Notes: generated from the sequence alone by a model not told the origin. DNA of 64,000 nt from Vicinamibacteria bacterium (GCA_035691285.1 DASSJI010000156.1:17858-81857); one strand, 5' to 3'; numbered from the stretch's first letter, positions 14,150 through 62,990 are shown. Made by a program: numbers and translations.

Positions 14150-14158
14150 GACCGGGGC

Positions 14159-15388: not shown

Positions 15389-15389
15389 G

Positions 15390-25400: not shown

Positions 25401-25817
25401 CTCGACCTTCAGAAGCCCCTCGCCAGGCCGCGGGCCATCACCTTTCGCGCCGAGCTGCCCGGCGAGCTACCCCGGGTGCGGGCCGACGCGTCGCTGCTGC
25501 GGCGCATCCTGGAGAACCTGGTCGCGAACGCCCTGCGCCACACGCCGCGCGGGGGCGAGGTTCTCGTCGCCGCCCGTGCTCTCGGCGAGCCGGTTCCGGT
25601 CATCGAGGTGCGGATCCGCGACTTGGGGCCGGGGATCCCGGCCGAGGAGCAGCTTCGCATCTTCGACAAGTGGGTGACCGGGGAGCAGCGCCACCGTGGC
25701 ACGGGCCTGGGACTGGCCTTCTGCCGCATGGCGGTCGAGGCCCAGGGCGGTCGGATCCGCGTCGAGAGCGCTCCCGGCGCCGGCGCCACGTTCGCGTTCA
25801 CGCTGCCGGCGGCCTAG
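22464..25817 (+). CDS. membrane-anchored multi-sensor histidine kinase (multi-TM N-terminus, PAS, 2-3 GAF, HisKA, HATPase_c)
   Basis: HDLRTPLNSIMGFLELL H-box. N, G1 and G2 boxes near the C-terminus. No adjacent response regulator. Confidence 0.85.
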   Translation: MSVEGRPLAESRLRRLRLDAGDVVFVCVAVAAVVFPLRLSEGPPAERFLPELLSALIDLALVWLLLRAAATPRLDRGSVRAFRLLAAARLCALVGNAVWYVDELRGAPPELSLSLAPYTAYYGFLLAGVLSFPMLFATPGERARFRLDALAILVGGGLVLLLALGDRSGGTPAESVVFALYALGDLVLLLAAALLLLRRDPRSGATFPLLAACLLLTLLGDSLAAARPLGLSLPEPAVPLTVRASRLCLAAAAYVFRRQALAHQGVAAAIARPRRRTLLPFAAMASGYGAVLAASIQGHRALPVLVVGVAALTFLVVFRQIAAERENARLLAEQITLKDKARFEALVESSADVVTLIDRGGRFLYASASLERVFGISPEQVVGHSAFESIHPDDRERCRRIFEDCIAVPGSRAHAELRMRHRDGAFRHVEADAVNQLDNPEIGALVATFRDVSARRRAEDELGAQRDLLANLLAVARATTQSPGLGTTLRNALDAVRTVVGATGGSIVLVDERGSVLSSVFAGADSPPEAGRRAHAREVLKGGLAGWVAHRREAAIVSDVLADERWLRLPGESIASALSVPISSGAELVGVLSLVHTERGFFEQRHLRLVQDACEQIALALRNAQVFEALGSMAQRLRLLNDFVRAAGLRLDPDAVLRTAVETLSRQTRWLNIAISVPDPETHVLRIVTRDQDAAPAMQRVGQGVVGRAYETGRTQLVPDVSRDPDHLEGSPLARSELAVPLKRGSRVLGVLNLESDEPDAFGEEDIRLAESLADTIAISLDEATVFRRLAEESERLQAVIGASRDGILLVGDGRVRLVNPPALRLLGLPGDVEDWLGRGKGDLPALARLAAAEGETSLEGRIVRYRAQPLAAGGAEGRLIVLRDVTEERRVAAMREDLTHTLVHDLRTPLNSIMGFLELLGHSPSLGDPHQELLEIAGRATQRLVSLVDTILDVSRLEKGAMPLELETMALAPVVTEVLDLQKPLARPRAITFRAELPGELPRVRADASLLRRILENLVANALRHTPRGGEVLVAARALGEPVPVIEVRIRDLGPGIPAEEQLRIFDKWVTGEQRHRGTGLGLAFCRMAVEAQGGRIRVESAPGAGATFAFTLPAA

Positions 25818-27485: not shown

Positions 27486-27514
27486 TTGAACCCTCCGCGC
27501 TAAGGTGGTAGAAA
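27486..27514 (+). promoter_or_regulatory. sigma70-like promoter for the che operon (TTGAAC, 17-nt spacer, TAGAAA)
   Basis: -35 at 27486..27491 and -10 at 27509..27514. A GGAGGAG SD lies at 27555..27561, 11 nt before the cheY ATG. Confidence 0.3.
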
Positions 27515-27572
27515 GCGCGCAAAGCGGCTCCAGCAGCGGCGTAGAGGCAACGCGGGAGGAGACTAGAAGAAG

Positions 27573-27953
27573 ATGCTCAGGAAGATCCTCGCGGTCGACG
27601 ACTCCGCGCTGATCCACCAGATGTACAAGCTCTTCCTCTCGCGCTACAAGAACTGCAAGCTGATCAGCGCGATGAACGGGCTCGAGGCCCTCGACAAGCT
27701 CGCGCAGGAAGAGGGCATCGACCTCATTCTCCTCGACATCAACATGCCGGTGATGAACGGCCTCGAGTTCCTGCAGCGGGTGCAGAAGGAGCCGGCCTAT
27801 CAGGCGATCCCCGTCATCATCATCTCGACCGAGGGCAAGGAAGAGGACACGATCCGCGGGCTCAAGATGGGGGCCAAGGGCTACGTGAAGAAGCCCTTCC
27901 AGGCCTCCGAGCTGCACGGCCTCATCGAGAAGATCACCTCGGCCTCGGCCTAG
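27573..27953 (+). CDS. cheY: chemotaxis response regulator CheY-like
   Basis: Receiver-domain residues DD, D(58-equivalent in LDINMP), T, K. Confidence 0.9.
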   Translation: MLRKILAVDDSALIHQMYKLFLSRYKNCKLISAMNGLEALDKLAQEEGIDLILLDINMPVMNGLEFLQRVQKEPAYQAIPVIIISTEGKEEDTIRGLKMGAKGYVKKPFQASELHGLIEKITSASA

Positions 27954-27962
27954 AGGCGCGCC

Positions 27963-29669
27963 TTGTCGGACTTCCAGGTCTCCGACGAGCTCCTCAACAT
28001 CTACATCGAGGACGCGCGCGGTCACCTCGAGGCCCTCGACCACTGCCTGCTCTCCCTGGAGCGGGACGGCCTGGAGCCGGCGGCGGTGCAGGCGGTCCTC
28101 GGTCCGCTGCACACCCTGAAGGGCAACAGCGGGATGATGGGCTTCGGCCAGATCAAGGACTACGTCCACCGCCTCGAGGACGTGTTCGCCCAGCTCGGCG
28201 AGGGCGGCATCCCGCTGGGCCCCGGGGCGTTCGACAAGCTCTTCGCCGGGGCGAGCGCCCTGCGCGACGCCGTCGAGCAGGCGTTCAGGTCCAAGGCCGA
28301 GGTGCGCAGCCTCGACCCGGAGCGCGCGGAGCTCGACGCGCTGCTCGGCGCCGGGCTGAGCGAGCCCGCGGCGGCGCCGGCCCTGCCGGCGCCCGCGCCG
28401 GCCAAGCCCAGGCCCGCGGAGCCGAGGCGCACCGACGAGCGTTACGTCGCGCCGCGCTCCTCCACCGTCCGCGTCGACTTCGCGCAGCTCGACCACCTGC
28501 TCAACCTGGTCGGCGAGCTGATCATCCACCGCACCAAGCTCGACCAGGTGGGCACGCGCCTCGCCGAGCGGCTCGGGGGCCGCGAGCTCGCCCAGGAGCT
28601 GATCGACGCCGTCCACCACCTGGCCGGGGTCTCCGCCCAGCTCCAGGAGACCGTGATGGACGTCCGGATGCTCCCGATCCGCCACGTCTTCGAGCGCTTC
28701 CCGCGCATGGTGCGCGACCTCGCGCGCGCCCAGGGCAAGGAGATCGAGCTGATCCTCGAGGGCGACCGCACCCGGGTCGACAAGGCCATCATCGACGAGA
28801 TCGGCGAGCCCCTCGTGCACCTGATCCGCAACAGCGTCGACCACGGCATCGAGACGCCCCGGGAGCGCATCGCCCGCGGCAAGACCCCGACCGGGACGAT
28901 CCTGCTCTCGGCCGCCCAGGAGTCGAACCACGTCCTGATCACCATCATGGACGACGGCTCCGGGATCGACCCGGTCACGATCCGCAAGAAGGCCGTCGAG
29001 CGCGGCCTGCTGAAGCCCGACGAGAACCTCTCGGACCGGGAGCTCGTGCAGCTCATCTTCTCCCAGGGCTTCTCGACGCGGAGCGAGGTGACCGAGGTCT
29101 CCGGCCGCGGCGTGGGGCTCGACGTCGTGATCAAGTCCATCGAGCGCCTGTCGGGCCTGATCGAGGTGGAGTCGGTGCCGGGCGTCGGGACCAAGTTCAT
29201 CATCCAGCTCCCGCTCACCCTCGCGATCATCTCGGCGCTCATGGTCGAGGTGGCCGGACGCACGTATGCGCTGCCCCTTGCGGCGGTGCTCGAGAGCCTC
29301 AAGTTCCGTCTCCAGGACGTGCACCGCATCAACGGCCGCGACACGCTGCGCCTCCGGGATCGCATCGTGCCCCTGGTGCGGCTGGGCGCCCTGTTCGGCT
29401 TCTCGAACGCCGAGGCGGGGCGCTACGCCGTCATCCTGGGGCGCGGCGACAAGCGCGTGGGGCTGGTCGTGGATCGGCTCTTCGGTCAGCAGGAGATCGT
29501 GATCAAGGCCCTCGACGTGGCGGTGTCGGGAGGCCACGTGCCGGTGGCCGGCGCCACGATCATGGGCGACGGGCGCGTGGTGCTGATCCTCGACGTCGCG
29601 GCGCTCTTCGAGGGCAAGCGCCAGGCGCTCCTCGGGCGCGAGGCGCCCGCCCTGCCCGCCGGGGCCTGA
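27963..29669 (+). CDS. cheA: chemotaxis histidine kinase CheA (P1-P3-P4-P5, no P2)
   Basis: HTLKGNSGMMG Hpt, a dimerization domain, HATPase (GRGVGLD), and a CheW-like domain. Confidence 0.9.
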   Translation: MSDFQVSDELLNIYIEDARGHLEALDHCLLSLERDGLEPAAVQAVLGPLHTLKGNSGMMGFGQIKDYVHRLEDVFAQLGEGGIPLGPGAFDKLFAGASALRDAVEQAFRSKAEVRSLDPERAELDALLGAGLSEPAAAPALPAPAPAKPRPAEPRRTDERYVAPRSSTVRVDFAQLDHLLNLVGELIIHRTKLDQVGTRLAERLGGRELAQELIDAVHHLAGVSAQLQETVMDVRMLPIRHVFERFPRMVRDLARAQGKEIELILEGDRTRVDKAIIDEIGEPLVHLIRNSVDHGIETPRERIARGKTPTGTILLSAAQESNHVLITIMDDGSGIDPVTIRKKAVERGLLKPDENLSDRELVQLIFSQGFSTRSEVTEVSGRGVGLDVVIKSIERLSGLIEVESVPGVGTKFIIQLPLTLAIISALMVEVAGRTYALPLAAVLESLKFRLQDVHRINGRDTLRLRDRIVPLVRLGALFGFSNAEAGRYAVILGRGDKRVGLVVDRLFGQQEIVIKALDVAVSGGHVPVAGATIMGDGRVVLILDVAALFEGKRQALLGREAPALPAGA

Positions 29670-29672
29670 GGG

Positions 29673-30428
29673 ATGGCGAGGGAGTCGCGGAAGAAGCCGT
29701 CGCGGAAGCCGGGGGGAGCCCCCGGGTGGACGGCCGGAGGGGACGACTCCTTCGTGTTTCCCGCGGAGCCCGCGCCGGCCGCGAGCGGCCGCATCTCGCT
29801 GCCCTCGTCGGGGCTCGCGTCGGACATCCTCGGCCGCTCCGAGGCGTCCCTCGTGCGCGCCGAGGCCGAGCCCGAGGCCCCGGAGGCGGCGCCCGCCGGC
29901 GACGACAGCTCCCTCCAGCGCGTCCACAACATCTCCTTCTTCGCGGCGCCTGCGCGCGAGGAGAAGACCGCCGTCGAGGCGCAGGAGCACCTCGTGACCT
30001 TCTTCCTGTCCGGGGAGGAGTACGGCGTGGACGTGCGACTGGTCCAGGAGATCATCCGCGTCGTCGAGATCACCCAGGTGCCGCGGGCGCCTGACTTCAT
30101 CAAGGGGGTCATCAACCTGCGCGGGCGGATCATCCCGGTCATCGACCTGAAGCGGAAGCTGGGGCTCGGAGAAGTGGCCCTGGAGCGGCAGACCCGCGTC
30201 GTCGTGATCCGGCTGCGCGATCGGCTCGTCGGGCTGCTCGTCGACGGCGCCTCCCAGGTCCTCAAGGTTCCCGTCTCGACGATCGAGGCGGCGCCCGAGG
30301 AGGTGGTGGAGATCGACGCGAACTACATCCGCGGCGTGGCGAAGCTCGAGAAGCGCCTGATCATCCTCGTGGACCTGCCCAAGATCCTCGGGATGGATCG
30401 CGAGACGGCGATGAGCCTGCCCACATGA
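29673..30428 (+). CDS. cheW: CheW coupling protein with about 100-aa low-complexity N-terminal extension
   Basis: CheW domain from LVTFFLSGEEYGVDV to LVDLPKIL. Confidence 0.85.
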   Translation: MARESRKKPSRKPGGAPGWTAGGDDSFVFPAEPAPAASGRISLPSSGLASDILGRSEASLVRAEAEPEAPEAAPAGDDSSLQRVHNISFFAAPAREEKTAVEAQEHLVTFFLSGEEYGVDVRLVQEIIRVVEITQVPRAPDFIKGVINLRGRIIPVIDLKRKLGLGEVALERQTRVVVIRLRDRLVGLLVDGASQVLKVPVSTIEAAPEEVVEIDANYIRGVAKLEKRLIILVDLPKILGMDRETAMSLPT

Positions 30429-31357
30429 ACGCCGTGCCAAGGAGAGTGCCCATGAGAGTGCGTATCGCCCTGGCCGCCGCGGTGCTGGCGGCCCCGGTCC
30501 TCTCCGCCGCGGCGGACGTCGCGGTGCTGAAGAGCACCGACACCCCGGCCTGGCGCCCCGCCATCGACGCCCTGCGGCGGGGCGCGGGCGCCCACGCGGT
30601 GACCGAGCACGACCTCCGGAACGACCGGGCCGAGGCGGACCGCGTGATCGCCGGCCTCAAGGGCAAGGCCGCCGTGATGGTGGCGATGGGCCCGCTCGCG
30701 GCGCAGGCGGCGCGCGAGGGCGCCCCCGAGATCCCCCTGGTCTTCTGCATGGTGCAGGACCCGGCCCGGCTCGGCCTGGCCGGGGCGCCCAACGTGACCG
30801 GCGTGTCCTTCCAGATCCCGATCAAGAACCAGCTCGCGGCCTTCCGGCTGGTCAACCCCCGCGCCGTGAAGATCGGCGCGATCTACTCCGAAGCCAACAC
30901 CGGCCCCCAGGTGGCCGAGGCCACCAAGTCCGCGGGCGTCGTGCGCCTCAACGTGGTCGGCCGACCCGTGGCCTCCGAGCGCGACGTGCCCGAGGCGCTG
31001 CGCGGTCTCTTGAAGGGCGGGGACGCCGTGGATGCGCTCTGGATCCCGCCCGACCCGATCCTGCTCGGAGACGAGTCGCGCCGCTACATCCTCGCGGAGA
31101 CCCTGAAGGCGGGCAAGCCCGTGTACAGCTTCTCCTCGGCCCTCGTGGCGGAGGGGGCGCTCGTCTCGAACGGTCCCGACATGGGCTCGATCGGCGACCA
31201 GGCCGCGGAGCTCGTGAACCGCATCGCCGGCGGCGAGAAGGGCAAGATCGAGATGCTGGTCCCCCGGGCCGAGCTCGTGATCAACAAGAAGATCGCCGAC
31301 AAGCTCAAGGTCGACGTTCCCATCGACGCGCTGAAGGCGGCGGGAAAGGTGTTTTGA
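30425..31357 (+). CDS. periplasmic substrate-binding-like protein (COG2984-type ABC periplasmic component fold) embedded in the che operon
   Basis: Signal peptide and type-I periplasmic binding protein-like alternating pattern. ATGA overlap with cheW; stop abuts the mcp start. Confidence 0.55.
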   Translation: MNAVPRRVPMRVRIALAAAVLAAPVLSAAADVAVLKSTDTPAWRPAIDALRRGAGAHAVTEHDLRNDRAEADRVIAGLKGKAAVMVAMGPLAAQAAREGAPEIPLVFCMVQDPARLGLAGAPNVTGVSFQIPIKNQLAAFRLVNPRAVKIGAIYSEANTGPQVAEATKSAGVVRLNVVGRPVASERDVPEALRGLLKGGDAVDALWIPPDPILLGDESRRYILAETLKAGKPVYSFSSALVAEGALVSNGPDMGSIGDQAAELVNRIAGGEKGKIEMLVPRAELVINKKIADKLKVDVPIDALKAAGKVF

Positions 31358-33655
31358 ATGGGCTTCGGAGGCTCCCGTTCCATCAGGACCAAGCTCGTGC
31401 TGCTCACCGCGCTGGTGGCGGTGATGACCGGCGGCATCGCCACGGTGTTCTCGGCTTTCAGCAGCGGGGCGGTGCTCCGCGAGGAGCTGATCAAGCGCGG
31501 CAACTACATCGCCTCGAACCTCGCCTACAACAGCAAGTACGGCGTCCTGACCGAGGACAAGCCGCTGCTCTCGCAGCTCCTCGAAGGGGCCATGTCCTCG
31601 GTCGCGGGCCAGACCTCCGACGTGGTCGGCGCCATGATCCGCGACCAGCAGGGCGGCATCCTCGCCCAGAAGGGGCTCTCGGTGAAGAGCCTTCCGGCGA
31701 CGCCGGCCAAGGCCCTCGAGAGCGTGGACGCCGCCACGGAGCAGGGCGAGAGCGCCATGCTGTTCCGCGCGCCCGTCACGACCACGGCGTCGGGCGGCGG
31801 CATGGCGGCGGAGCTGGGCATCGCACCGGCTTCGTCCGGCTCGGCCGGCGAGGAGCAGAAGGGCGGCGTCGAGATCGTCCTCTCGACGACGCAGCTCCAG
31901 ACGCGCCAGACGAGCCTGTTCTTTCGCACCACCCTGGTCGGGCTCCTGCTGATCGGGCTGGGCGCGACGGGCGGCTGGTATCTCATCGGGCTGTGGTTCC
32001 AGCCGGTGCAGAACATGGTGGACGTGGCCGCCGCCGTGGCGAAGGGCGACCTGACCGAGAGCCTCAAGATCGAGTCGGGAGACGAGATCGGCACGCTGGC
32101 CCAGAGCCTCAACGAGATGGTCGCGAACCTCCGGCGCGTCGTCGACAACATCCAGGAGACCTCGGTGCAGGTCGCCTCGAGCGCGGGCGAGATCTCCGCC
32201 AACGCCAAGCTGATCACCCAGGGCGCCCAGAGCCAGGCGCAGGCCGCCGAGGAGACCTCGACCTCCATGGAGGAGATGGCGGCCTCGATCCAGACCGTCG
32301 CCGGCAACGCCCAGCAGCTCGCCCAGTACGTCGACGAGACCTCGTCCTCGATCACCGAGATGGGCGCCTCCATCGAGGAGGTCGCGCGCTCGACGGCCAC
32401 GCTGGCATCGACGGTGGCCGAGGCCTCGGCCACCGTCGAGCAGATGACGGTCTCGACGGATCAGGCCGCGAAGAACCTCGAGCAGGTGGCCGAGACCGTC
32501 TCCGAGACCTCGGTCACGATCGAGGAGATGACGTCTTCGATCGAGGCGGTGGCCCGCAACGCCGAAGTGCTGCAGGGCGCGTCCCAGCGCGCGAGCCAGG
32601 TGGTCTCCGAGATGGCAGGCGCCGTCACCGACGTGGCCAAGATCGCCGCCGAGGCCGACCGCATCAGCCAGAAGGCCAGCGAGGACGCCCGCACCGGCGA
32701 CGTGTCGGTGACGACGACCATCCAGGGCATGAAGACGATCTCGGAGACCATGGAGAACACCGCCCGGGTCATCACCAGCCTGGGCAAGCGCAGCCAGGAG
32801 ATCGGCAAGATCCTCGAGGTGATCGAGGAGATCGCCGACCAGACGAACCTGCTGGCCCTGAACGCCGCCATCGAGGCCGCCCGCGCCGGCGAGGCGGGCC
32901 GCGGCTTCGCCGTGGTCGCCGACGAGGTGCGCAAGCTGGCCGAGCGCTCCGTCGAGGCCACCAAGGAGATCGGCGAGGTGATCCGCCAGGTGCAGCAGGA
33001 GACCACCGACGCCGTCGACGTCGCGAAATCCGGCGCCTCCGAGACGAAGGAGGGCATCCAGCTCGCCGACCAGGCCGGCCTCGCCCTGCGTCGCATCATC
33101 GAGTCGGTCTCGCGCTCGAGCCAGCTCATGGCCGAGATCGCCCAGGCGACGGCGAAGCAGTCGCGGGCCTCCGCCGAGGTGCTGAAGACCGTGAGCGACA
33201 TGAACGCGGTCACCGAGCAGGTCACGACCGCGGTGCGCGAGCAGGCCGCCGGCTCGAAGCAGATCCGCCAGGCCGTCGAGCACATCAACAAGACCATCGG
33301 CCAGGTGGCCTACGGCACCAAGGAACAGGCCCAGGGCGGCCGCCAGGTTCGCGTCGCCGTGGAGAACATGAACAAGATCGCCTCCCAGGTCGGGATCGCG
33401 ACCAAGGACCAGGCCGAGGGCAGCCGCACGATCATCCGCTCGGTGGAGAACATGAACCGGATGACCCAGCAGGTCTCCTACGCCACCGCCGAGCAGAAGC
33501 GGGGCGGCGAGCTGGTGGTGAAGGCCATGGAGAACATCTCGACGATCGCCCGGGACAACCTCTCCACCGTGGAGGAGATGTCCAAGGCCACCTCCAACCT
33601 GGCCCAGCAGGCCGAGAACCTGGCGAAGCTGATCGCGGTCTTCCGCGCGAAGTAG
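31358..33655 (+). CDS. methyl-accepting chemotaxis protein (2 TM, periplasmic domain, HAMP, long MA domain)
   Basis: Conserved hairpin [33 protein letters not shown]. Confidence 0.9.
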
Positions 33656-33730
33656 ACGCGCCACGGAGACCCTGAGGACACGGAGCAGGAGGACGCCCCG
33701 CAAGGGCGTGTCTCCGCGGCGTCGCGATCC

Positions 33731-36097
33731 ATGAGCCTCGACATCCAGGCCGCCCTCGAGGCGCTGCGCTCCGGAGAGGAGTCGGTGCGCCGGGCGACCG
33801 TGGACCACCTCGGCCGTTCGGGCCTGCGCGAGGCGATACCCGCGCTCCTGACGGCGGTCGGCGACGACTCCTGGCCCGTGCGCCAGGCGGCGGCGGAGCA
33901 GCTCGCCGGCTTCGATCGCGCGGCGCTGCTGCCCGCCCTCGAGGCGGCCCTGCGCAACGACGAGGACGCGGCGCTGCGCAACGCGGCGATGGAGATCTAC
34001 GTGAAGCTGGGCGGGGCGGCGGTTCCCCCCCTGCTCGCCCTCATGGAGGACAGGGACGAGGAGATCCGCAACTTCGCGGCGGTCATGCTCGGCACGCTGC
34101 GCGACGAGCGCAGCGTGCCGGCCCTGGTCCGGGCGCTCCAGGACCCGGACGTCAACGTGCGCCACGCTGCCGCCGCGAGCCTGGGCCAGATCGGCTCCCG
34201 CGAGGCGGTGCCGCCGCTGATCGAGGCCCTGCGCACGGAGACGTGGCTCCAGTATCCGGCGATCACCGCCCTGGGCGAGATCGGAGACCCGCGCGCGACG
34301 CCGGCGCTCCTCGAGCTGCTCTCCGACGAGATGTTGCGCGGTCCTGTGCTCGAGGCCCTCGGACGGGTGGCCGGGCGCGAGGCGCTGCGCCACCTGATCC
34401 CGGGCCTGTACGCGGCCGATTCGGTGCTGCGCAACCTGGCGATCAAGGCGGTCGTGGCGATCGAGCAGCGGGCCACGGCCGAGGGCGAGAGCCTCGACCC
34501 CGACGTCCAGGCCGCGCTGCGTCGCGGCGACCTCGTCGAGCACCTGCTCCATACGCTCGACGACGACGACCCCACGATCCGGCGTACGGCGGTGATCACC
34601 CTCGGCTGGCTCAAGGAGCCGCGGGCCGAGGCGGCCCTGATCCGCCTGCTCGCCGAGCCGGGGCTGCAGGAGTACGTCACCCACGCCCTCGTCTCGATCG
34701 GGTGCCGGGACCGGGCGGCCTATCAGGAGGGGCTGCAGCACCCCGACGACGCCGTGCGCCAGGGCACGCTGCGGTGCGTCGCCTGGATCCAGCCGCCGGG
34801 GGCCATCGAGCTCGTGGCGCCGCTCATCCACGACCCGGCCGTCGAGGTGCGGGCGGAGGCCGTGGCCGCCATCGGGCGCGTCGGGCACGAAGACGCCCCG
34901 ATGCTCCTGTTCGAGCTGCTCGGGGACGAAAGCGAGATCATCCAGGAGAGCGCCATGGAGGCGCTGGCGCGCGCCGCGCCCGAGAAGGTGGTGCCACTCC
35001 TGCTCCAGGCCCTCGGCAGCGCGGACGTGCAGGTGCGGATCCGCGCCGCCGAGACCCTCGGCTTCCTGCGCCAGCCCGAGACGGCCCCCGCGCTCATCGC
35101 CTTGAGCCGGGATCCGCGCGAGCACGTGAGGCGCGCGGCGATCAAGGCCCTGGGCGAGCTGGAGGCGCCGGGCGTGAAGGACCTGCTCCGGGCGGCGCTC
35201 CTCGACGAATCGAGCCTGGTGCGCCAGCAGGCCGTGCTGTCGCTGGGCAAGCTCCAGGAGCCCGACACGGCGGAGGACCTGCTGCCGCTGCTGGACGACC
35301 CGGATCCGAAGATGCGCTTCGTCACGCTGCGCGCCCTGGGGCAGGTCCGCGGGCCGGAGGCCGTGACCCGGGTGCTGCCGTTCCTGCAGGAGGCGCGCAA
35401 GGAGCTGCGCTTCGCGGCGGTGGAGGCGCTCGGCCAGATGCGGGCGCTCCTGGCCGTGCGGCCCCTGATCGCCGTCCTGAGCGACGCCGACCGCAACCTG
35501 CGCCGAGCGGCCGCGGAAAGCCTCGGCGCCGTCGGCGACCCGCAGGCGGTGCCGCCGCTGCTCCTGGCCCTGGAGGACGACCACTGGAGCGTGCGCTGCG
35601 CCGCCGCCGCCGCCCTCGGCCGCATCGGCAGCGTGAAGGCGACGGCCGGGCTCCTGAGCCGGCTCGACGACGAGGACCCCACGGTGCGGCGCGCCGCCAT
35701 CGCCGCGCTGGGCGAGGTCGCGGACGCCCGGGCGGCGTTCCGGCTGATCCAGTCCCTGCAGGACCCCGCGCTGCAGGCTTCGGCCCTCGAGGCGCTGCGC
35801 CGGATGGGGCCGGCCGCGCTCCAGGAGATCGAGCGCGCGTTCGCGTCGCTCGCCGCGGACGCCCGCCGCCTGCTGGTGGACCTCGTCGGCCGCATCGAGG
35901 ATCGCCGCGCCGCCCGGCTGCTGCTCGACGCCCTCGCCGATGCCAGCGCCGCGGTGCGCGCCGAGGCCGCGCTGGCCCTGGGCGACGGCGGACACCTCGA
36001 CGCCCTGCGGCCGCTCATGGCGCTCAAGTCCGCCGACCCGGCGGCCGAGGTGCGCAAGGCCGCCGCGACGTCGCTGCGCAAGCTCCAGCCGCGATGA
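33731..36097 (+). CDS. HEAT-repeat (PBS-lyase-type) protein, about 20 repeats
   Basis: Repeated A(I/V)P(A/P)L(I/L)xxLxDxDxxVRxxAAxALGxIG units. Comparable to M. xanthus Cpc7 in the Che7 cluster. Confidence 0.8.
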   Translation: MSLDIQAALEALRSGEESVRRATVDHLGRSGLREAIPALLTAVGDDSWPVRQAAAEQLAGFDRAALLPALEAALRNDEDAALRNAAMEIYVKLGGAAVPPLLALMEDRDEEIRNFAAVMLGTLRDERSVPALVRALQDPDVNVRHAAAASLGQIGSREAVPPLIEALRTETWLQYPAITALGEIGDPRATPALLELLSDEMLRGPVLEALGRVAGREALRHLIPGLYAADSVLRNLAIKAVVAIEQRATAEGESLDPDVQAALRRGDLVEHLLHTLDDDDPTIRRTAVITLGWLKEPRAEAALIRLLAEPGLQEYVTHALVSIGCRDRAAYQEGLQHPDDAVRQGTLRCVAWIQPPGAIELVAPLIHDPAVEVRAEAVAAIGRVGHEDAPMLLFELLGDESEIIQESAMEALARAAPEKVVPLLLQALGSADVQVRIRAAETLGFLRQPETAPALIALSRDPREHVRRAAIKALGELEAPGVKDLLRAALLDESSLVRQQAVLSLGKLQEPDTAEDLLPLLDDPDPKMRFVTLRALGQVRGPEAVTRVLPFLQEARKELRFAAVEALGQMRALLAVRPLIAVLSDADRNLRRAAAESLGAVGDPQAVPPLLLALEDDHWSVRCAAAAALGRIGSVKATAGLLSRLDDEDPTVRRAAIAALGEVADARAAFRLIQSLQDPALQASALEALRRMGPAALQEIERAFASLAADARRLLVDLVGRIEDRRAARLLLDALADASAAVRAEAALALGDGGHLDALRPLMALKSADPAAEVRKAAATSLRKLQPR

Positions 36098-36104
36098 CGA
36101 CCTG

Positions 36105-36974
36105 ATGTTCCATCCCTCGGACCGCGAGATCGAGCTGGGCGAGGAGGAGTTTCGCCTGCTCCGCGACTTCATCCACGAGAAGTTCGGCCTCTTCTTCGAC
36201 GACGCCCAGCGCCACACGCTGCGGGCGCGGCTGGCGTCGCGGCTCACGAGCCTCGATCTCCTCTCCTACGAGGACTACTACCACTACCTGCGCTTCGGCC
36301 CGCAGCGGAACGAGGAGCTGCAGCGGATGGCGAGCCACCTCACCAACAACGAGACCTACTTCTTCCGCGAGCAGCCCCAGCTCCAGGTCTTCCAGGACCA
36401 CGTGCTCAAGGCGCTCAAGGAGCGCAAGGCACGGACGGGCGAGCGCGCCCTGCGGATCCTCTCGGCGGGCTGCTCCACCGGCGAGGAGATCCACACGATC
36501 GCGATGATCGTCTACGACAGCGGGCAGTTCTTCTGGAACTGGGAGGTGGATCTCGTGGGCCTCGACATCGACGAGGCGGCGCTGGAGCGGGCCCGCAAGG
36601 GCATCTACTTCCACAATTCCTTCCGCGGCCTGCCGTCCGCCATCCGCGAGCGCCACTTCTCGCGGGAGGGAGCGGGGGAGCGCGTCAAGGAGCCGCTGCG
36701 GCGGCTGATCCGCTTCCGGCAGGGCAACCTGATGGAGGCCGGCAGCTTCGACGGGCTGCGCCCGGTGGACGCGATCTTCTGCCGGAACGTGCTCATCTAC
36801 TTCTCCGACACCGCGATCCGGAAGGTGGTGGAGCACTTCTGGCGCACGCTCGCCCCCGAGGGCTACCTGATGCTCGGCCACGCCGAGTCGCTCTCGCGGA
36901 TCACGGACAGCTTCACGCCGATCCGCTTCCCGGGCGCCATGGTCTACCAGAAGCCCGTGCAGGCCGGCGCATGA
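36105..36974 (+). CDS. cheR: chemotaxis protein methyltransferase CheR
   Basis: Internal ATG of ORF 35940..36974, just after the HEAT gene stop. SAM-binding LRILSAGCSTGEE. Confidence 0.9.
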   Translation: MFHPSDREIELGEEEFRLLRDFIHEKFGLFFDDAQRHTLRARLASRLTSLDLLSYEDYYHYLRFGPQRNEELQRMASHLTNNETYFFREQPQLQVFQDHVLKALKERKARTGERALRILSAGCSTGEEIHTIAMIVYDSGQFFWNWEVDLVGLDIDEAALERARKGIYFHNSFRGLPSAIRERHFSREGAGERVKEPLRRLIRFRQGNLMEAGSFDGLRPVDAIFCRNVLIYFSDTAIRKVVEHFWRTLAPEGYLMLGHAESLSRITDSFTPIRFPGAMVYQKPVQAGA

Positions 36975-37999
36975 AGCGGCGCAGGATCCGGGTCCTGGTC
37001 GTGGACGACTCGGCCTTCGTGCGCCAGGCCCTCACGCGGATGCTCTCGGGCGAGGCCGACATCGAGGTCGTCGGCCAGGCCGTCGACGGACGGGACGGGC
37101 TCGACAAGATCCGCGGCCTGCACCCGGACGTGGTCACCATGGACGTCCAGATGCCGCGCATGGGCGGCCTCGAGGCGCTGGCGGAGCTGATGGCCCAGAA
37201 CCCGGTGCCGGTGTTGCTGCTGTCGTCCCAGACCCGCGAGGGGGCGGAGGTCACGCTGCGGGGCCTGGAGCTCGGCGCCCTCGACTTCGTGGACAAGTCG
37301 CGGGTGCAGGGGAACATGAACCTTCTCAACCTGGCCGAGGAGCTCAAGGCCAAGATCCGCGCCATCGCGGGCGTCCACGTGCCCCGGCGGGCCGCCGACG
37401 AACGCCCGCTGCCGGTGCTGCCGCGCAAGGCGCGGGCCGACGTGGTGGTCATCGCCACCTCGACGGGCGGGCCGCCGGCGCTCCAGGCCATCCTCCCGCG
37501 GCTGCCTCGCGCGCTGCCCTCGGCTGTGCTGGTGGTCCAGCACATGCCCGTGGGCTTCACGCGCTCGCTGGCCGAGCGCCTGTCGACCCGCAGCGAGCTG
37601 CCGGTGCGAGAGGCCGAGGACGGAGAACCCGTGGAGCCCGGCCTGGTGCTCGTGGCGCCGGCGGGCAAGCACACGAAGGTGCGCCGGCGCGGGGCGCTGG
37701 TCAGGGTCGTGCTGGACGACGAGCCGAAGCACGCGCTGCACCGGCCCTCGGCCGACGTGCTGATGGCCACGGTGGCCCGCGTCTACGGCTCGCGGGCGCT
37801 GGGCGTGGTGCTGACCGGGATGGGCTCCGACGGCACCGAGGGGCTCCGGGCGATCCGGGAGCACGGCGGGCGCACCCTCGCCGAGGCCGAGGAGAGCTGC
37901 GTGATCTACGGGATGCCCAAGTCCGCCGTCGAGGCCGGCGTCGTGGACGAGTCGGTGCCCCTCGAGCGCATGGCCGAGGCGATTCTCGCGGCGGTATAG
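36971..37999 (+). CDS. cheB: chemotaxis methylesterase CheB (REC + CheB_methylest)
   Basis: VVIATSTGGPPAL and GMGSDG motifs. ATGA overlap with cheR. Confidence 0.9.
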   Translation: MKRRRIRVLVVDDSAFVRQALTRMLSGEADIEVVGQAVDGRDGLDKIRGLHPDVVTMDVQMPRMGGLEALAELMAQNPVPVLLLSSQTREGAEVTLRGLELGALDFVDKSRVQGNMNLLNLAEELKAKIRAIAGVHVPRRAADERPLPVLPRKARADVVVIATSTGGPPALQAILPRLPRALPSAVLVVQHMPVGFTRSLAERLSTRSELPVREAEDGEPVEPGLVLVAPAGKHTKVRRRGALVRVVLDDEPKHALHRPSADVLMATVARVYGSRALGVVLTGMGSDGTEGLRAIREHGGRTLAEAEESCVIYGMPKSAVEAGVVDESVPLERMAEAILAAV

Positions 38000-38014
38000 A
38001 ATTCGGTCTCTCCG

Positions 38015-39778
38015 ATGAGCCTGACCGGCAACCTGGAAGACCTGCCGCTCCTCGACATCCTCCAGATCGTCTCGTTCAGCAAGAAGACCGGCTTTCTCAC
38101 CATCCAGGCCCAGGAGGGCCAGGGCGCAATCGTCTTCCACGACGGGCTCGTCGTCTCGGCCTTCACCTGGGAGAGCCTGCCCGTGGACCCGCGCATCGCC
38201 ACCCTGCCGCCCGATCGCCGCCATGCGGTCATCAAGAACCGGATCGTGATGGCCCTGGAGCGGCTGACGCGGCTGCGCGAGGGTCAGTTCAACTTCGCGC
38301 TGGTCGAGAGCGTGCCGCAAGCCGTCGGCGCGCGCGAGATCGTCCTCGAGACGCTGCCGACGGGCATCAACCCGCAGGAGATGCTGCTCGACCTGGCGCG
38401 AGGCCTGGACGAGGACCGGCGCGATTCCACGGCCGCTCTCGAAGCGTCCTTCGCCGACGTGCCGGTCGAGGCGCTCGCCGAGCCGACCCAGGCGGCGCAG
38501 GACGACCAGGTCGAGGAGCCCGGCGACGCCGTGGTCGCCTCCTTCGTGCAGGGAGCCACGACCGTGCAGGATGCCACGCCGGCCGAGGAGCCCGTCGAGA
38601 CCGCCGTGCCTCCACCGGCCCCTCCCGCGGCGCCCGACGACAGCGCCACGGTGGCGTTCACGCCGGAGGCGGCGACCGGGCGGCCCGCGCCACGCCGTGC
38701 CGAGCCATCCGCCCCCGCCGAGGCGCCGGCGGCTGGGCCGCCGCCCCGGACGGTCCTGCTGGTGGACGACGAGGACGACGTGCGCGGCATCATCGGCGGC
38801 CTGTTCCGCGTGGTCGGGTACGAGGTCATCGAGGCCGAGGATCCCGAGTCGGCGGTCAAGGCGGCCCAGACCCTGCACAAGGCCGGCGCCGCGTTCCTGC
38901 TCCTCGTCGACCTCGGGATGCCGGCCTCGGGCGGCTCGTCCTTCCAGGGCGGCTTCGAGGTGGTGAAGCGCCTGTGGAAGATGCACCTGCGGCCGCCGGT
39001 CCTGATGATGACGGACAGCCTGAACCCCGGCCTGCGCGCGCGGGCCCGCCAGATGGGGATCTCGAGCTTCGTCTTCAAGCCGGGTCTCTCGAAGCTCGAC
39101 CGCAAGCAGTTCGAGGCCGACCTGCGCGCCTTCGCCACCCGTCTGGTCCAGGACATCCTGCCTTCGATGGGCCGGGGCAACGGCGCGAAGCGCCCGAAGG
39201 CGTCCCGCCTGCCGGGGTCGGTCGAGGCGCCCCAGGCGGCTCCCGCCTCGGCGGCGGACCTCTCGCGCGAGCTGGGCCTGCTGCAGGAGCGACTCGCCGA
39301 GCTGCGCAAGCAGTCGGATCCCACGCAGATCGCGATGATGGTCATGCGCGTGGCCCGGGAGTTCTTCGAGCGCGGCGTCCTGCTCCTGGTCAAGAACGAG
39401 GAGCTGCGCGGCCTCGGCGGCTTCGGCATGGTTCCCAAGGATCACAGGATCGGCCTGCTCGTCCGCGAGATCGTGATCCCGCTCGGAGAGGACTCGATCT
39501 TCCGGGACGTCGCCGAGGGGCAGAAGACCTTCGTCGGAGCGCTGCCCGACGGCAAGTGGTCGAAGGCCCTGCTGGCCCGCATCGGCCGCTTCAAGTCCGG
39601 CGGCGCCGTGCTCGTGCCCCTGCTCACGAACCGGGAGACGATCGCCCTTCTCTACGGCGACAACCCGGAGACCGGCGTCACTCCCGGTCGTCTCGACACC
39701 CTGGAGCTCTTCATCAACCAGGCGGGGATCGCCCTCGAGAACGCGTTCCTGCAGCGGAAGGTCCGCGGCGCGGGGTAG
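38015..39778 (+). CDS. PATAN (DUF4388) - receiver - GAF-like multidomain response regulator
   Basis: N-terminal LEDLPLLDILQIVSFSKKTGFLTIQ (DUF4388/PATAN). A central REC domain (TVLLVDDEDDVRG ... LLVDLGMP). C-terminal GAF-like region. Confidence 0.75.
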   Translation: MSLTGNLEDLPLLDILQIVSFSKKTGFLTIQAQEGQGAIVFHDGLVVSAFTWESLPVDPRIATLPPDRRHAVIKNRIVMALERLTRLREGQFNFALVESVPQAVGAREIVLETLPTGINPQEMLLDLARGLDEDRRDSTAALEASFADVPVEALAEPTQAAQDDQVEEPGDAVVASFVQGATTVQDATPAEEPVETAVPPPAPPAAPDDSATVAFTPEAATGRPAPRRAEPSAPAEAPAAGPPPRTVLLVDDEDDVRGIIGGLFRVVGYEVIEAEDPESAVKAAQTLHKAGAAFLLLVDLGMPASGGSSFQGGFEVVKRLWKMHLRPPVLMMTDSLNPGLRARARQMGISSFVFKPGLSKLDRKQFEADLRAFATRLVQDILPSMGRGNGAKRPKASRLPGSVEAPQAAPASAADLSRELGLLQERLAELRKQSDPTQIAMMVMRVAREFFERGVLLLVKNEELRGLGGFGMVPKDHRIGLLVREIVIPLGEDSIFRDVAEGQKTFVGALPDGKWSKALLARIGRFKSGGAVLVPLLTNRETIALLYGDNPETGVTPGRLDTLELFINQAGIALENAFLQRKVRGAG

Positions 39779-39813
39779 GCCCGCCCTGCGGGGGCGAGGA
39801 AGGGGGGGCTTGA

Positions 39814-39821
39814 TATAGAAT
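39814..39821 (+). promoter_or_regulatory. TATAGAAT -10-like box 18 nt upstream of the GAF gene
   Basis: gcttgaTATAGAATcc. Confidence 0.2.
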
Positions 39822-39838
39822 CCCCGGCCGAAGAGCGT

Positions 39839-40639
39839 ATGGCGAACCCCGACGACCCCCGCAAGAGCCAGGACTTCTTCTCGATCTTCACCAAGGCCAA
39901 GGAGTTCACCGAGGAGCTGCTCAAGGAAAACGAGCGGCTGCGCTTCCGCATCGCGCAGCTCGAGAGCAGCCCCGGACCGGTCGGGGGCGAGGCCGGGGAG
40001 CTCCAGCAGCGCGTCAAGGACCTGGAGACGAAGCTCCAGGAGATGGAGAAGCGCTTCAAGCGCGTCGAGGCCGAGAACAAGGAGTTCGCCGACCGCTACC
40101 TCGAGATCGAGGAGCAGAACAACAACCTGGCGAACCTCTACGTCGCCTCCTACCAGCTCCACTCCACCCTGGACTACAAGGAGGTCGTGCGCATCGTCCA
40201 GGAGATCGTGATCAACCTGATCGGGGCCGAAGCCTTCCACGTGTTCGTGCTGAACGAGAAGACCGGCAGCCTCGAGCTCGAGTCGAGCGAGGGCCAGACC
40301 GCCGGCCTCACCACGATCCCGATCGGCCAGGGCAAGATCGGCGGCGCCGCCGCCTCTGGCGAGAACTACTTCGCCGACCACGTCGCCACCCGGGAGGCCG
40401 CTCCCTTCGACGAGCCGCTCGCGGTGATCCCGCTCAAGATCAAGGACAGCGTGATCGGCGTGATCTCGATCAACAAGCTGCTCGTGCAGAAGACCGCCTT
40501 CAACGCCATGGACTACGAGCTGTTCACGCTCCTCGCGGGGCACGCCGCCACGGCGATCTTCTCCTCGAAGCTCTACTCGCTCTCGGCGAGGAAGCTCACG
40601 ACCCTCCAGGGCTTCCTCGACATGATGAAGCAGAAGTAG
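39839..40639 (+). CDS. coiled-coil + GAF domain protein
   Basis: N-terminal heptad-rich segment (LKENERLRFRIAQLE ... KDLETKLQEMEKRFKRVEAENKE), then a GAF fold (FHVFVLNEKTGSLEL ... VIGVISINKL). Confidence 0.7.
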   Translation: MANPDDPRKSQDFFSIFTKAKEFTEELLKENERLRFRIAQLESSPGPVGGEAGELQQRVKDLETKLQEMEKRFKRVEAENKEFADRYLEIEEQNNNLANLYVASYQLHSTLDYKEVVRIVQEIVINLIGAEAFHVFVLNEKTGSLELESSEGQTAGLTTIPIGQGKIGGAAASGENYFADHVATREAAPFDEPLAVIPLKIKDSVIGVISINKLLVQKTAFNAMDYELFTLLAGHAATAIFSSKLYSLSARKLTTLQGFLDMMKQK

Positions 40640-40658: not shown

Positions 40659-40664
40659 TATAAT
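40659..40664 (+). promoter_or_regulatory. TATAAT -10-like box 21 nt upstream of the AAA+ gene
   Basis: gtcgcTATAATgcgg. Confidence 0.2.
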
Positions 40665-40685: not shown

Positions 40686-42152
40686 ATGCGAGCCACCACC
40701 CTCGGAGAGCTGAAGCGCGCCGGGCACGCCCGCGGCGCGTCGGTGCGGGACGAGCTGCGCCGCAACCTGATCGCCCGCATGCGGGCGGGGCAGCGTCTGT
40801 TCCCCGGGGTGCTGGGTTACGACGACACCGTCGTGCCCCAGGTCGTGAACGCGATCCTGTCGCGGCACCACATGATCCTGCTGGGCCTCAGGGGCCAGGC
40901 GAAGAGCCGCCTGATCCGCAGCTTGACGACGCTCCTCGACGCCCACGTGCCCGCCGTGCTGGGCTGCGAGATCCACGACGATCCCTTCGCGCCCCTGTGC
41001 CGGCGCTGCCGCGAGCTCCTCGCCGAGCGGGGCGACGACACGCCAATCGCCTGGCTCACCCCCGACGAGCGTTACGTGGAGAAGCTGGCGACCCCCGACG
41101 TCACCATCGCGGACATCATCGGGGACGTCGACCCGATCCGCGCCGCCCGCGGCGGCCACGACCTGTCCAGCGAGCTGACCATGCACTATGGGCTGCTGCC
41201 CCGCGCCCACCGCGGCGTCTTCGCCCTCAACGAGCTGCCAGACCTCGCCGGGCGCATCCAGGTGGGTCTCTTCAACATCCTTCAGGAAGGCGACGTCCAG
41301 ATCAAGGGCTACCCGATCCGGCTGCCCATCGACGTGACCATGGTGTTCACCGCCAACCCCGAGGACTACACGGCCCGCGGCAAGATCATCACGCCCTTGA
41401 AGGATCGCCTGGGGAGCGAGATCCGCACCCACTACCCGGCCACCCTGGAGCAAGGCGTCGCGATCACGCAGCAGGAGGCCTGGACCGCTCGCGGCGCGGA
41501 GCTGCGCGTTCCGCGTTACATCCGGGAGGTCGTCGAGGGCGTGGCCTTCGCGGCGCGCCGCGAGAAGAAGATCGACAAGCGGAGCGGCGTCAGCCAGCGG
41601 CTGCCGATCAGCGCCCTCGAGAACACCGTCTCGAACGCCGAGCGGCGGGCGCTGCTGAAGGGCGAGGCGCTCGTCGTGCCGCGGGTCGCGGACGTGTACG
41701 CGGCGCTGCCCGCGCTCACGGGCAAGTTCGAGCTGGAGTACGAGGGCGAGCTCATGGGGGGCGAGGCGGTGGCGCGCGACCTCATCAAGGCGGCGGTGGG
41801 AGAGGCGTTCTCCGTGCACCTGGGCTCGGCGGACATGAAGCCGGTCGTGGCCTTCTTCGAAGGCGGCGGGAGCGTGAAGCTCGATGGCGACGCCGGCGCC
41901 GCCGAGGTCGTCGCGCAGCTCCGCCGCGTGCCACACCTCTTCGACCACCTCGCGCCCCTCGGCGCCCGCCCGGGCGATCCGGAGCCGCTCGTGGCTTCGG
42001 CGGCGGAGTTCCTGCTCGAAGGCCTCTATTCGCGGAAGCAGATCGGCCGAAGCGACGACCGCGGCTTCGTGGCTCCCGAGCGCGTCCCCGAGAGCGACCT
42101 CGACATCGAGCGCCTGGAGCGCCTGCGCCGGCTCAAGAAGCAGGTCAACTAG
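40686..42152 (+). CDS. ChlI/BchI-like (Mg-chelatase family) AAA+ ATPase
   Basis: Walker A LGLRGQAKSRLIRSL. Walker B / sensor region VFALNELPDL ... VFTANPEDY. Arginine-finger region. Confidence 0.8.
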   Translation: MRATTLGELKRAGHARGASVRDELRRNLIARMRAGQRLFPGVLGYDDTVVPQVVNAILSRHHMILLGLRGQAKSRLIRSLTTLLDAHVPAVLGCEIHDDPFAPLCRRCRELLAERGDDTPIAWLTPDERYVEKLATPDVTIADIIGDVDPIRAARGGHDLSSELTMHYGLLPRAHRGVFALNELPDLAGRIQVGLFNILQEGDVQIKGYPIRLPIDVTMVFTANPEDYTARGKIITPLKDRLGSEIRTHYPATLEQGVAITQQEAWTARGAELRVPRYIREVVEGVAFAARREKKIDKRSGVSQRLPISALENTVSNAERRALLKGEALVVPRVADVYAALPALTGKFELEYEGELMGGEAVARDLIKAAVGEAFSVHLGSADMKPVVAFFEGGGSVKLDGDAGAAEVVAQLRRVPHLFDHLAPLGARPGDPEPLVASAAEFLLEGLYSRKQIGRSDDRGFVAPERVPESDLDIERLERLRRLKKQVN

Positions 42153-42156
42153 GACC

Positions 42157-43377
42157 ATGTCCGTCCGCTATCACCGCTACATCGCCGACCTCTGGGAGGA
42201 CCTGAACCTCGGGGAGCTGGTGGACGAGCTGTCCGACTACCTGCTGCAGAGCGGGTTCGGCCTCGAGCCAGGCGACCTCGAGGGCGACGAGCAGCAGGCC
42301 CTCCACGACGCGATCCTGGACGCGATCATGCGGCGCGGGCTCCTGTCGGACGAGGACCTGCAGAAGCTGATGTCCGAGGCCTCCGCGCTCGACCAGTTCC
42401 TGCAGAAGACCGTGGAGCGACTGCTCCGCGAAGGCTACCTGCGCCGGAGCGAGGCGCAGCCTTTCCACGACCCGACGGGCGGCGGGGGAGCCGACGGACC
42501 CGAGGGCCGGCCCCTGCGCTTCGAGCTCACGGAGAAGGGGACCGACTTCCTGGGCTATCGGGCGCTCCGGAACCTGCTCGGCTCCCTCGGCAAGTCCTCC
42601 TTCGGCCGTCACGACACCCGCGACCTCTCCACCGGCGTCGAGGCGTCGGGCCCGTCGAGGGGCTGGGAGTTCGGCGACACCATGAACCTCGACATCGGCG
42701 GGACGCTGCTCTCGGCCCTCTCCCGAGAGGGGCTGAGGCTGCCCCTCGACGTGGACTACAAGGACCTGCTCGTCCACCAGTGCGAGTACCAGAGCTCGTG
42801 CGCGACGGTGCTGATGCTCGACTGCTCCCACAGCATGATCCTCTACGGTGAGGACCGCTTCACGCCCGCGAAGCGAGTGGCCCTGGCCCTGTCTCACCTG
42901 ATCCGCACCCAGTACCCCGGCGACTCGCTGTCCCTGGTGCTCTTCCACGACTCCGCCGAGGAGGTGCCCCTGAAGCAGCTCGGCAACGTCCGCGTGGGCC
43001 CCTACTACACGAACACCCGCGAGGGCCTCCGCCTCGCGCAGCGGGTGCTCGCCCGGGAGCGGAAGGACATGCGCCAGATCGTGATGATCACCGACGGGAA
43101 GCCGTCGGCCCTGACCGAGGACGGCGGGCGCATCTACCGCAACCCCTTCGGCCTCGATCCCCGCGTCGTGGCCTTGACCCTCAAGGAGGTGGCCAACTGC
43201 CGGCGCCAGGGCATCCAGATCAACACGTTCATGCTCGCGCGCGACTGGGATCTCGTGGCGTTCGTCAAGAAGGTGACCGAGATCTGCCGGGGCAAGGCGT
43301 ATTTCACGACGCCCTGGTCCCTCGGCCAGTTCGTCTTGATGGACTATCTCAGGAACAAGGTCGAGAAGGTCCATTGA
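42157..43377 (+). CDS. von Willebrand factor A domain protein (MIDAS DxSxS), partner of the AAA+ ATPase
   Basis: Internal ATG of ORF 41884..43377, 4 nt after the AAA+ stop. LMLDCSHSM MIDAS motif, then ITDGKPS. Confidence 0.8.
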   Translation: MSVRYHRYIADLWEDLNLGELVDELSDYLLQSGFGLEPGDLEGDEQQALHDAILDAIMRRGLLSDEDLQKLMSEASALDQFLQKTVERLLREGYLRRSEAQPFHDPTGGGGADGPEGRPLRFELTEKGTDFLGYRALRNLLGSLGKSSFGRHDTRDLSTGVEASGPSRGWEFGDTMNLDIGGTLLSALSREGLRLPLDVDYKDLLVHQCEYQSSCATVLMLDCSHSMILYGEDRFTPAKRVALALSHLIRTQYPGDSLSLVLFHDSAEEVPLKQLGNVRVGPYYTNTREGLRLAQRVLARERKDMRQIVMITDGKPSALTEDGGRIYRNPFGLDPRVVALTLKEVANCRRQGIQINTFMLARDWDLVAFVKKVTEICRGKAYFTTPWSLGQFVLMDYLRNKVEKVH

Positions 43378-56911: not shown

Positions 56912-56932
56912 GGTCGCCCCCGCAACCGCCGC

Positions 56933-62988: not shown

Positions 62989-62990
62989 CG

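Follow-up and report, generated by a model that had tools for sequence, protein, structure and literature searches.

Which chemosensory class does a che operon belong to when a periplasmic binding protein and a HEAT-repeat protein are embedded among its signalling genes and two GAF-domain proteins follow them, and what might such an operon sense and control? This question is raised by a 64,000-nucleotide (nt) stretch of DNA from a Vicinamibacteria bacterium (GCA_035691285.1 DASSJI010000156.1:17858-81857; the whole stretch is referred to as the window), in which ten plus-strand genes occupy positions 27573–40639. They encode, in order, CheY, CheA, CheW, a substrate-binding protein (SBP), a methyl-accepting chemotaxis protein (MCP), a HEAT-repeat protein, CheR, CheB, a PATAN-REC-GAF response regulator and a coiled-coil GAF protein (ccGAF; Table 1). 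Sequence comparison suggests, with a probability that we put at about 0.7, that the operon is a Vicinamibacteria representative of a non-flagellar chemosensory class spanning several phyla, and that it couples SBP-mediated sensing to two response regulators and an output in surface behaviour. The class is broad, little studied and already known; what is new is the SBP-coupled, transmembrane-MCP variant in Vicinamibacteria and the extreme conservation of its CheY.

The genes were identified by GC3-based gene calling and Pfam searches, and all ten were found on the plus strand with the domains that an earlier note on this DNA had assigned to them. The G+C content is ~72% across the window, and GC3 values of 0.94–0.98 back the coding status of the operon genes. 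A complete signalling core is present: the CheA domain set, CheW, the MCP signalling hairpin, the adaptation enzymes CheR and CheB, and a CheY whose phospho-acceptor site (DD, D, T and K residues) is complete. The CheA domains are Hpt (residues 9–107), H-kinase_dim (166–233), HATPase_c (283–419) and CheW (425–550), and the linker between P1 and P3 has just 58 amino acids (aa) and is poorly conserved. The N-terminal extension of CheW is also less conserved than its CheW domain (0.45 versus 0.78). The ATG listed in Table 1, 7 nt past the HEAT stop codon, is most likely the start of cheR; an open reading frame from 35940 was rejected, which would overlap the HEAT gene by 158 nt in a different frame. 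Both receiver proteins, CheY and PATAN-REC-GAF, carry complete phospho-acceptor sites.

The genes are packed somewhat less tightly than the earlier note had described. Its upper limit of 15 nt for the intergenic gaps is exceeded between mcp and HEAT (75 nt) and between PATAN-REC-GAF and ccGAF (60 nt), and the ATGA overlap that it placed between cheW and the SBP gene is replaced by a 23-nt gap when the SBP starts at 30452 (M10). This start is the most likely one because homologues measure 301–305 aa; the 310-aa reading frame from 30425 has no exact database match. The gap is 3 nt between cheA and cheW, which are not separated by an AAA_22 ATPase gene, and 15 nt between cheB and PATAN-REC-GAF. 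The ATGA overlap of cheR and cheB is retained in 14 of 17 loci.

To place the operon, the PATAN-REC-GAF protein was searched against 1.84 billion representative proteins, and 173 clusters match at E<1e-30, many over the full length with 26–40% identity. In the alignment, the PATAN domain is conserved, K355-P356 of the receiver is invariant, and the phospho-acceptor D299 is nearly so. The C-terminal GAF-like domain retains an invariant YGDN motif (547–550), R453, G471 and P535 despite 25–38% identity, which suggests that a specific binding or catalytic site may be present in this family. Eighty metagenome loci were then collected via the PATAN alignment and annotated with phmmer, and the counts are limited to loci with enough sequence. 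PATAN-REC-GAF is followed by CheY-CheA in 43 of the 49 metagenome loci that have enough downstream sequence, and every long-enough PATAN-first locus (29/29) has an AAA_22 ATPase. In 21 of 23 distant loci, the gene directly before cheR encodes a HEAT protein of 608–790 aa, and a ccGAF homologue follows cheB, directly or past a PATAN gene, in 11 of the 15 loci with room for it. The distant layout (L025–L027, L029 and L031) reads PATAN-REC-GAF, CheY, CheA, AAA_22, CheW, an optional CheY, CheW, Zn-ribbon-REC or REC, HEAT, CheR and CheB; PATAN-first loci run on with HEAT, CheR, CheB and ccGAF, and the extended CheW occurs in them as well. The class loci span 32% to 74% G+C; Acidobacteriota, candidate division CSSED10-310, Deltaproteobacteria and Polyangiaceae are among the names of their sources.

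The ccGAF of the window is 44–47% identical to proteins in the clusters of L033 (36% G+C) and L040 (50% G+C), where ccGAF is placed before CheY-PATAN, and its N-terminus is 40% identical to that encoded by the gene after cheB in L029; a PDB sequence search with ccGAF gave no useful match. The HEAT protein has a 31-residue period and is evenly conserved from end to end (0.70–0.77). Because this period spans 788 aa, it contains nearer 25 repeats than the 20 claimed earlier. Since the HEAT, PATAN-REC-GAF and ccGAF proteins travel with cheY, cheA, cheW, cheR and cheB in dozens of loci, they define the class. They had been described as unusual embedded accessories, a description that does not fit these three. 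The window shows the class traits of a PATAN-REC-GAF together with cheY/cheA, a HEAT gene directly before cheR and ccGAF 3′ of cheB. It has no AAA_22 gene between cheA and cheW and no extra receiver before HEAT, and its cluster is not mcp-free; the SBP and mcp genes occupy the position held by the extra receiver in class clusters. In three loci of ~44% G+C (L028, L030 and L032; one source is candidate division CSSED10-310), PATAN-REC-GAF occurs with CheW, REC-HisKA and a second PATAN protein, and no full che cluster was found near it.

The described layout that best matches the class is the Geobacter beta-group/Esn cluster. In G. sulfurreducens, the order is response regulator GSU2224, CheY GSU2223, CheA GSU2222, ATPase GSU2221 and CheW GSU2220, with EngA (GSU2225) adjacent (PMC8242959, PMC5585712). 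The layout of L029 equals the GSU2220–2224 order, including Era and EngA genes upstream, and the order of the Geobacter cluster (cluster 5) thus equals the PATAN-first layout of L029 and 43 metagenome loci. Judged from gene order only, GSU2224 would be a PATAN-REC-GAF protein; the Geobacter comparative paper makes no mention of HEAT or PATAN. Tran et al. describe the beta-group cluster as conserved in Deltaproteobacteria including M. xanthus and as affecting the extracellular matrix (PMC2577667). In the Esn system, CheA, CheW and the ATPase are required for electrode colonisation (PMC5585712), and cells with an insertion in GSU2224 tolerate oxygen and aggregate (PMC8242959). The window shares CheY, CheA, the extended CheW, HEAT, CheR, CheB, PATAN-REC-GAF and ccGAF with the PATAN-first layout that is matched to this system. 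Compared with the Geobacter cluster, it lacks the AAA_22 ATPase, any Zn-ribbon or additional receiver protein and a second CheW, and PATAN-REC-GAF lies after cheB instead of first. In contrast to the beta-group clusters, which have no mcp genes (PMC2577667), the window encodes its own transmembrane MCP and an SBP.

Che7 of M. xanthus, taken alone, is a weaker match to the class. Its genes MXAN_6965 to MXAN_6959 run cheY-cheA-cheW-mcp-HEAT-cheR-cheB (PMC3945109, PMC9040617), and the core order of the window is identical apart from the inserted SBP. Both systems have a CheA without P2 or a receiver domain and a short CheR without TPR (PMC3945109). The Che7 HEAT protein Cpc7 binds CheY7 (PMC11514114). 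Mcp7 is cytoplasmic and of class 40H (PMC3945109), whereas the MCP of the window is transmembrane, has a HAMP domain and reaches ~72 heptads. Che8, which has no mcp, falls into one group with Che7 and Dif (PMC3945109). MXAN_6966 encodes a hybrid kinase (PMC4603909). No report of a PATAN-REC-GAF protein, ccGAF or SBP was found for Che7. The Che7-like character proposed in the earlier note therefore holds for the core order, and Che7 is not the sole analogue, since the Geobacter beta-group/Esn system matches the class better. Che7 reportedly also includes the Des7 desaturase (Darnell 2014).

The cyanobacterial Tax/Pil systems are like the window in that a PATAN-REC regulator and a plain CheY operate under one CheA. 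Their MCPs are photoreceptors, and they are not known to have a HEAT protein or CheR/CheB. The cyanobacterial Tax systems control type IV pili; the window has the regulator pair, and no pilus genes lie within it. The cyanobacterial PATAN is an output domain that binds PilB1/PilC (10.1101/2021.06.11.447907, PMC11181946). PatA-type regulators are two-domain PATAN-REC proteins without a C-terminal GAF (10.1101/2021.06.11.447907), which is present in the protein of the window.

The variant is strongly conserved within its lineage. A scan of species-representative genomes with the SBP alignment yielded 21 loci, all from Acidobacteriota or Vicinamibacteria metagenome-assembled genomes (MAGs), and a literature search found no publication on Vicinamibacteria chemosensory systems. 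The gene order is the same in 23 related loci (L001 and L003–L024) wherever the contig reaches: lepB, lepA, a histidine kinase and a ROK gene (both optional), cheY, cheA, cheW, SBP, mcp, HEAT, cheR, cheB, PATAN-REC-GAF, ccGAF and AAA+. Relative to the window proteins, the median identity in the related loci is 97% for CheY, 88% for LepA, 75% for ccGAF, 73% for MCP, 71% for both HEAT and CheB, 70% for CheA, 68% for CheR, 66% for both SBP and CheW, and 64% for PATAN-REC-GAF. CheY (range 92–100% over L001–L024) is thus more constrained than LepA, a universal translation factor. This constraint is unusually strong for a receiver of 126 aa.

High-GC acidobacterial loci (L092, L094, L095, L098, L102, L105 and L107) also have PATAN-REC-GAF and ccGAF after cheB and an in-cluster transmembrane MCP. 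The AAA_22 ATPase is present and the SBP absent in L092 and L102; the SBP is present and the ATPase absent in L107 and all Vicinamibacteria loci. On this comparison, the traits specific to the Vicinamibacteria branch appear to be the SBP and the in-cluster transmembrane MCP of ~72 heptads, together with two losses, those of the AAA_22 ATPase and of the extra receiver protein.

The SBP scores 85.6 bits against ABC_sub_bind (PF04392; cut-off 25.9) and has a hydrophobic, cleavable-looking signal peptide without a lipobox cysteine. It is 100% identical to a protein (P0001, 301 aa) from a Vicinamibacteria MAG and shares ≥65% identity with at least 120 clusters (90% identity level). Its AlphaFold (AF2) model has a pLDDT of 86.7, and the best Foldseek match is 3LFT, an L-Trp complex (TM-score 0.84, E 1e-21). 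Because the model superposes on 3LFT, the predicted fold is complete, two-lobed and non-degenerate, which answers a concern of the earlier note that this protein might be a degenerate, non-binding fold. The TDP, NVTGVS and W-P-D motifs line up with those of 3LFT, and the three solved members of the family bind L-Trp, L-Tyr or L-Phe (PMC10443332).

The SBP stop codon abuts the mcp start in the window (0 nt), as had been noted, and the median gap across 21 loci is 4 nt. No ABC permease or ATPase gene adjoins the SBP gene; ABC genes occur in the window only at 13454–16559 and are of the MacB type. A PF04392 SBP also adjoins a HAMP-MCP in L040, with the order reversed (MCP then SBP), and the sensor domain of that MCP is weakly homologous to the one in the window (E 2.5e-5). 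By sequence, L040 thus represents a second, independently arranged SBP-MCP pairing, which raises our confidence that the pairing is functional. Its cluster (L040:1-13808) encodes CheA, CheW, a cytoplasmic MCP, ccGAF, CheY, PATAN-REC-GAF, the HAMP-MCP and the SBP, and a GAF-MCP is encoded on the other strand; this GAF-MCP is reminiscent of EsnA of Geobacter, described as an MCP with a GAF sensor. Given the signal peptide, the complete fold, the short median gap, the adjacency in L040 and the lack of a transporter partner, the dedicated SBP-MCP pairing that had been proposed is plausible. No report of PF04392 proteins in chemoreceptor signalling was found in the literature. SBP-dependent chemoreceptors of other kinds are described for E. 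coli (Tar-MBP) and P. aeruginosa (CtpL-PstS; PMC10443332), and the likeness is that a secreted binding protein would hand its ligand to the periplasmic domain of the MCP. In contrast to the SBPs of those two systems, which also serve an ABC transporter and are encoded elsewhere, the SBP of the window belongs to PF04392 and lies in the che operon with no transporter nearby.

The MCP has two transmembrane segments and a periplasmic domain of ~150 aa. This domain matches sCache_4 marginally and resembles the BarA N-terminus (NCBIfam, E 6e-11), and a PDB sequence search with the sensor region gave no useful match. The hairpin tip EAGRGF lies at residue ~515 between arms of 254 and 251 aa, or ~36 heptads each; the total of ~72, estimated from arm lengths, would exceed 64H (32 per arm), the longest heptad class named in PMC8235581. 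Each arm consists of approximately five 28-residue repeats, in register between the arms, with EQ methylation-like sites. The C-terminal arms of the L025 and L026 MCPs reach roughly 30–31 heptads by eye estimate; a script found no tip motif in them.

Several points weigh against the class assignment and the proposed function. The evidence on the Vicinamibacteria proteins themselves is sequence-based, and the link to Geobacter and Myxococcus is drawn from gene order and published annotation. These genomes were surveyed for pilus genes only within the window, and for flagellar genes only within the window and the 10-kb flanks. Adjacency within the Vicinamibacteria loci is weak evidence for function because all of them share one synteny block that includes lepA, and ccGAF, possibly with PATAN-REC-GAF, may be expressed separately because both have −10-like elements of their own. 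The MCP may also sense by itself, since L102 and L025 have homologous sensor domains (38% identical to that of the window in L102) without an adjoining SBP. These sensor domains, together with the shared synteny, would also fit an SBP that is a mere passenger, either an orphan or a transporter-serving protein, beside an MCP that senses its own ligand through the sCache-like domain; sCache domains commonly bind ligands directly. We regard this as unlikely, though it deserves to be kept in view. The SBP-mcp junction is the third tightest of the operon, after cheR-cheB and cheA-cheW, the SBP is kept in every Vicinamibacteria locus with no adjoining permease or ATPase gene, and the pairing recurs in reversed order in L040.

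An ordinary flagellar chemotaxis operon with its motor genes elsewhere in the genome would have the same full core of CheA, CheW, CheY, CheR, CheB and MCP, and motility genes could be viewed in the 64-kb window only. As the earlier note had stated, there are no motility genes nearby: 0 flagellar and 0 pilus genes were found throughout the window, and no flagellar genes in the 10-kb flanks of the Vicinamibacteria loci. The defining partners are HEAT, PATAN-REC-GAF and ccGAF, CheA is without P2, CheZ, CheC and CheX are absent, and the matching Geobacter and Myxococcus systems show non-flagellar phenotypes (PMC5585712, PMC2577667, PMC9040617), all of which makes a flagellar operon very improbable. 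We give equally little credence to PATAN-REC-GAF and ccGAF being independent neighbours with their own promoters, outside the pathway. In favour of this reading, a conserved TAGAAT lies 5′ of both genes, and the gaps before them (15 and 60 nt) are larger than those inside the core; however, both genes accompany the che core in distant lineages as well, where their order varies (PATAN leads in 43 loci, L033 and L040 read ccGAF-CheY-PATAN, and acidobacterial loci have both after cheB), and the receiver of PATAN-REC-GAF retains its phospho-acceptor residues.

For the ligand and output of the chemosensory operon, we infer the following scheme. The secreted SBP, co-translated with the MCP, would capture a small ligand, the known ligands of its family being aromatic amino acids, and the loaded SBP would dock onto the sCache-like periplasmic domain of the MCP. 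The transmembrane MCP, CheW and CheA form the core, with CheR and CheB as adaptation enzymes for a very long receptor in which EQ sites recur. CheA would phosphorylate both CheY and PATAN-REC-GAF. By analogy with CheY7-Cpc7 in Myxococcus, phosphorylated CheY may engage the HEAT protein, and the PATAN domain, together with ccGAF, may target cell polarity, type IV pili or the matrix. Such a target is suggested because cyanobacterial PATAN binds PilB1/PilC and Geobacter mutants are changed in aggregation and electrode colonisation.

More tentatively, and at slightly worse than even odds in our estimation, CheY, PATAN-REC-GAF, ccGAF and HEAT may form a conserved output module of the multi-phylum class that is coupled in Vicinamibacteria to a dedicated, transporter-independent PF04392 SBP. 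If so, this SBP would be the first member of its family whose sole role is that of a chemoreceptor co-sensor, and the near-invariance of CheY, above that of LepA, would reflect simultaneous constraints from several partners. Vicinamibacteria are widespread and abundant soil bacteria with few cultured members, and the pathway is one whose class relatives influence, in Geobacter, biofilm or electrode colonisation and, in Myxococcus, development. The comparison yields a parts list for the class (PATAN-REC-GAF, CheY, HEAT and ccGAF) and hypotheses that can be tested in the tractable Geobacter or Myxococcus, and the SBP-MCP pair is a defined candidate for ligand screening.

A consensus promoter and terminator scan found 0 promoters in the window and terminators no more often than expected by chance; promoter elements were then sought by phylogenetic footprinting. 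In an alignment of 20 cheY upstream regions, the only well-conserved block is TTGAAC-17 nt-TAGAAA, and this conservation bears out the promoter position that had been predicted upstream of cheY. The scan missed it because the −10 element ends in A. Further conserved AT-rich hexamers are conspicuous against the GC-rich DNA (Table 1), and ccGAF may be transcribed from its own promoter as well as by read-through.

Table 1. Coordinates of the operon genes, promoter-like elements and neighbouring genes in the window
Feature	Position	Strand	Description and evidence
Promoter	27486-27514	+	−35 TTGAAC, 17-nt spacer, TG-extended −10 TAGAAA; footprinting
cheY	27573-27953	+	Single-domain response regulator, 126 aa; Pfam Response_reg 96.9 bits
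cheA	27963-29669	+	Histidine kinase, P1-P3-P4-P5, no P2, 568 aa; Pfam
cheW	29673-30428	+	N-terminal extension of ~100 aa; CheW domain 107-240 (Pfam)
SBP	30452-31357	+	PF04392/COG2984, 301 aa; Pfam ABC_sub_bind; alternative start 30425
mcp	31358-33655	+	Transmembrane; sCache_4 (marginal), HAMP, MCPsignal (Pfam)
HEAT	33731-36097	+	HEAT-repeat (PBS-lyase-like) protein, 788 aa; HEAT_2 397 bits, HEAT_PBS 183 bits (Pfam)
cheR	36105-36974	+	Methyltransferase, 289 aa, no TPR; CheR_N and CheR domains (Pfam); start MFHPS
cheB	36971-37999	+	Methylesterase with receiver domain; Pfam; NCBIfam CheB 412 bits
TAGAAT	37997-38002	+	−10-like, overlaps cheB stop codon; in about half of aligned loci; weak evidence
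PATAN-REC-GAF	38015-39778	+	PATAN(DUF4388)-REC-GAF response regulator, 587 aa; Pfam
TAGAAT	39816-39821	+	−10-like, 5′ of ccGAF; GGGnTAGAAT block in nearly all of 15 aligned loci
ccGAF	39839-40639	+	Coiled-coil GAF protein, 266 aa; GAF_3/GAF_2 (Pfam)
TATAAT	40659-40664	+	Before AAA+ gene; conserved in nearly all loci
AAA+ gene	40686-42152	+	ChlI/MoxR-like; Pfam, NCBIfam
VWA gene	42157-43377	+	Pfam, NCBIfam
Histidine kinase	22464-25817		PAS-GAF-GAF, membrane, 1117 aa; between lepA and che operon

The neighbours of the operon include lepA, lepB, a ROK kinase, the PAS-GAF-GAF histidine kinase, clpB and an ABC system of the MacB type. At the Vicinamibacteria loci, the flanking genes identified are lepB/lepA, a histidine kinase, ROK and the AAA+ gene. 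The PAS-GAF-GAF kinase was set aside as an operon member and probably lies outside the system because only some related loci (L003–L005) carry it. The AAA+/VWA pair was likewise set aside; it is probably a separate transcription unit because it has its own conserved TATAAT, and its position after ccGAF is confined to high-GC acidobacterial loci (L092, L094, L095, L102 and L107); L031 does not have this arrangement. The position may reflect a functional partnership or mere lineage synteny. Rfam and tRNA scans of the window gave no matches. Two signal peptidase I (S26) genes are present at 5138–5836 and 19752–20501, the second of which is the conserved lepB adjoining lepA. At 54899–63884, genes for a GH18 protein (plus strand), a 1381-aa protein with TPR and polysaccharide-deacetylase domains (minus strand) and a chitin-synthase-like GT2 protein (minus strand) are clustered, and this region may be an exopolysaccharide locus, for example for a chitin- or PNAG-like polymer.

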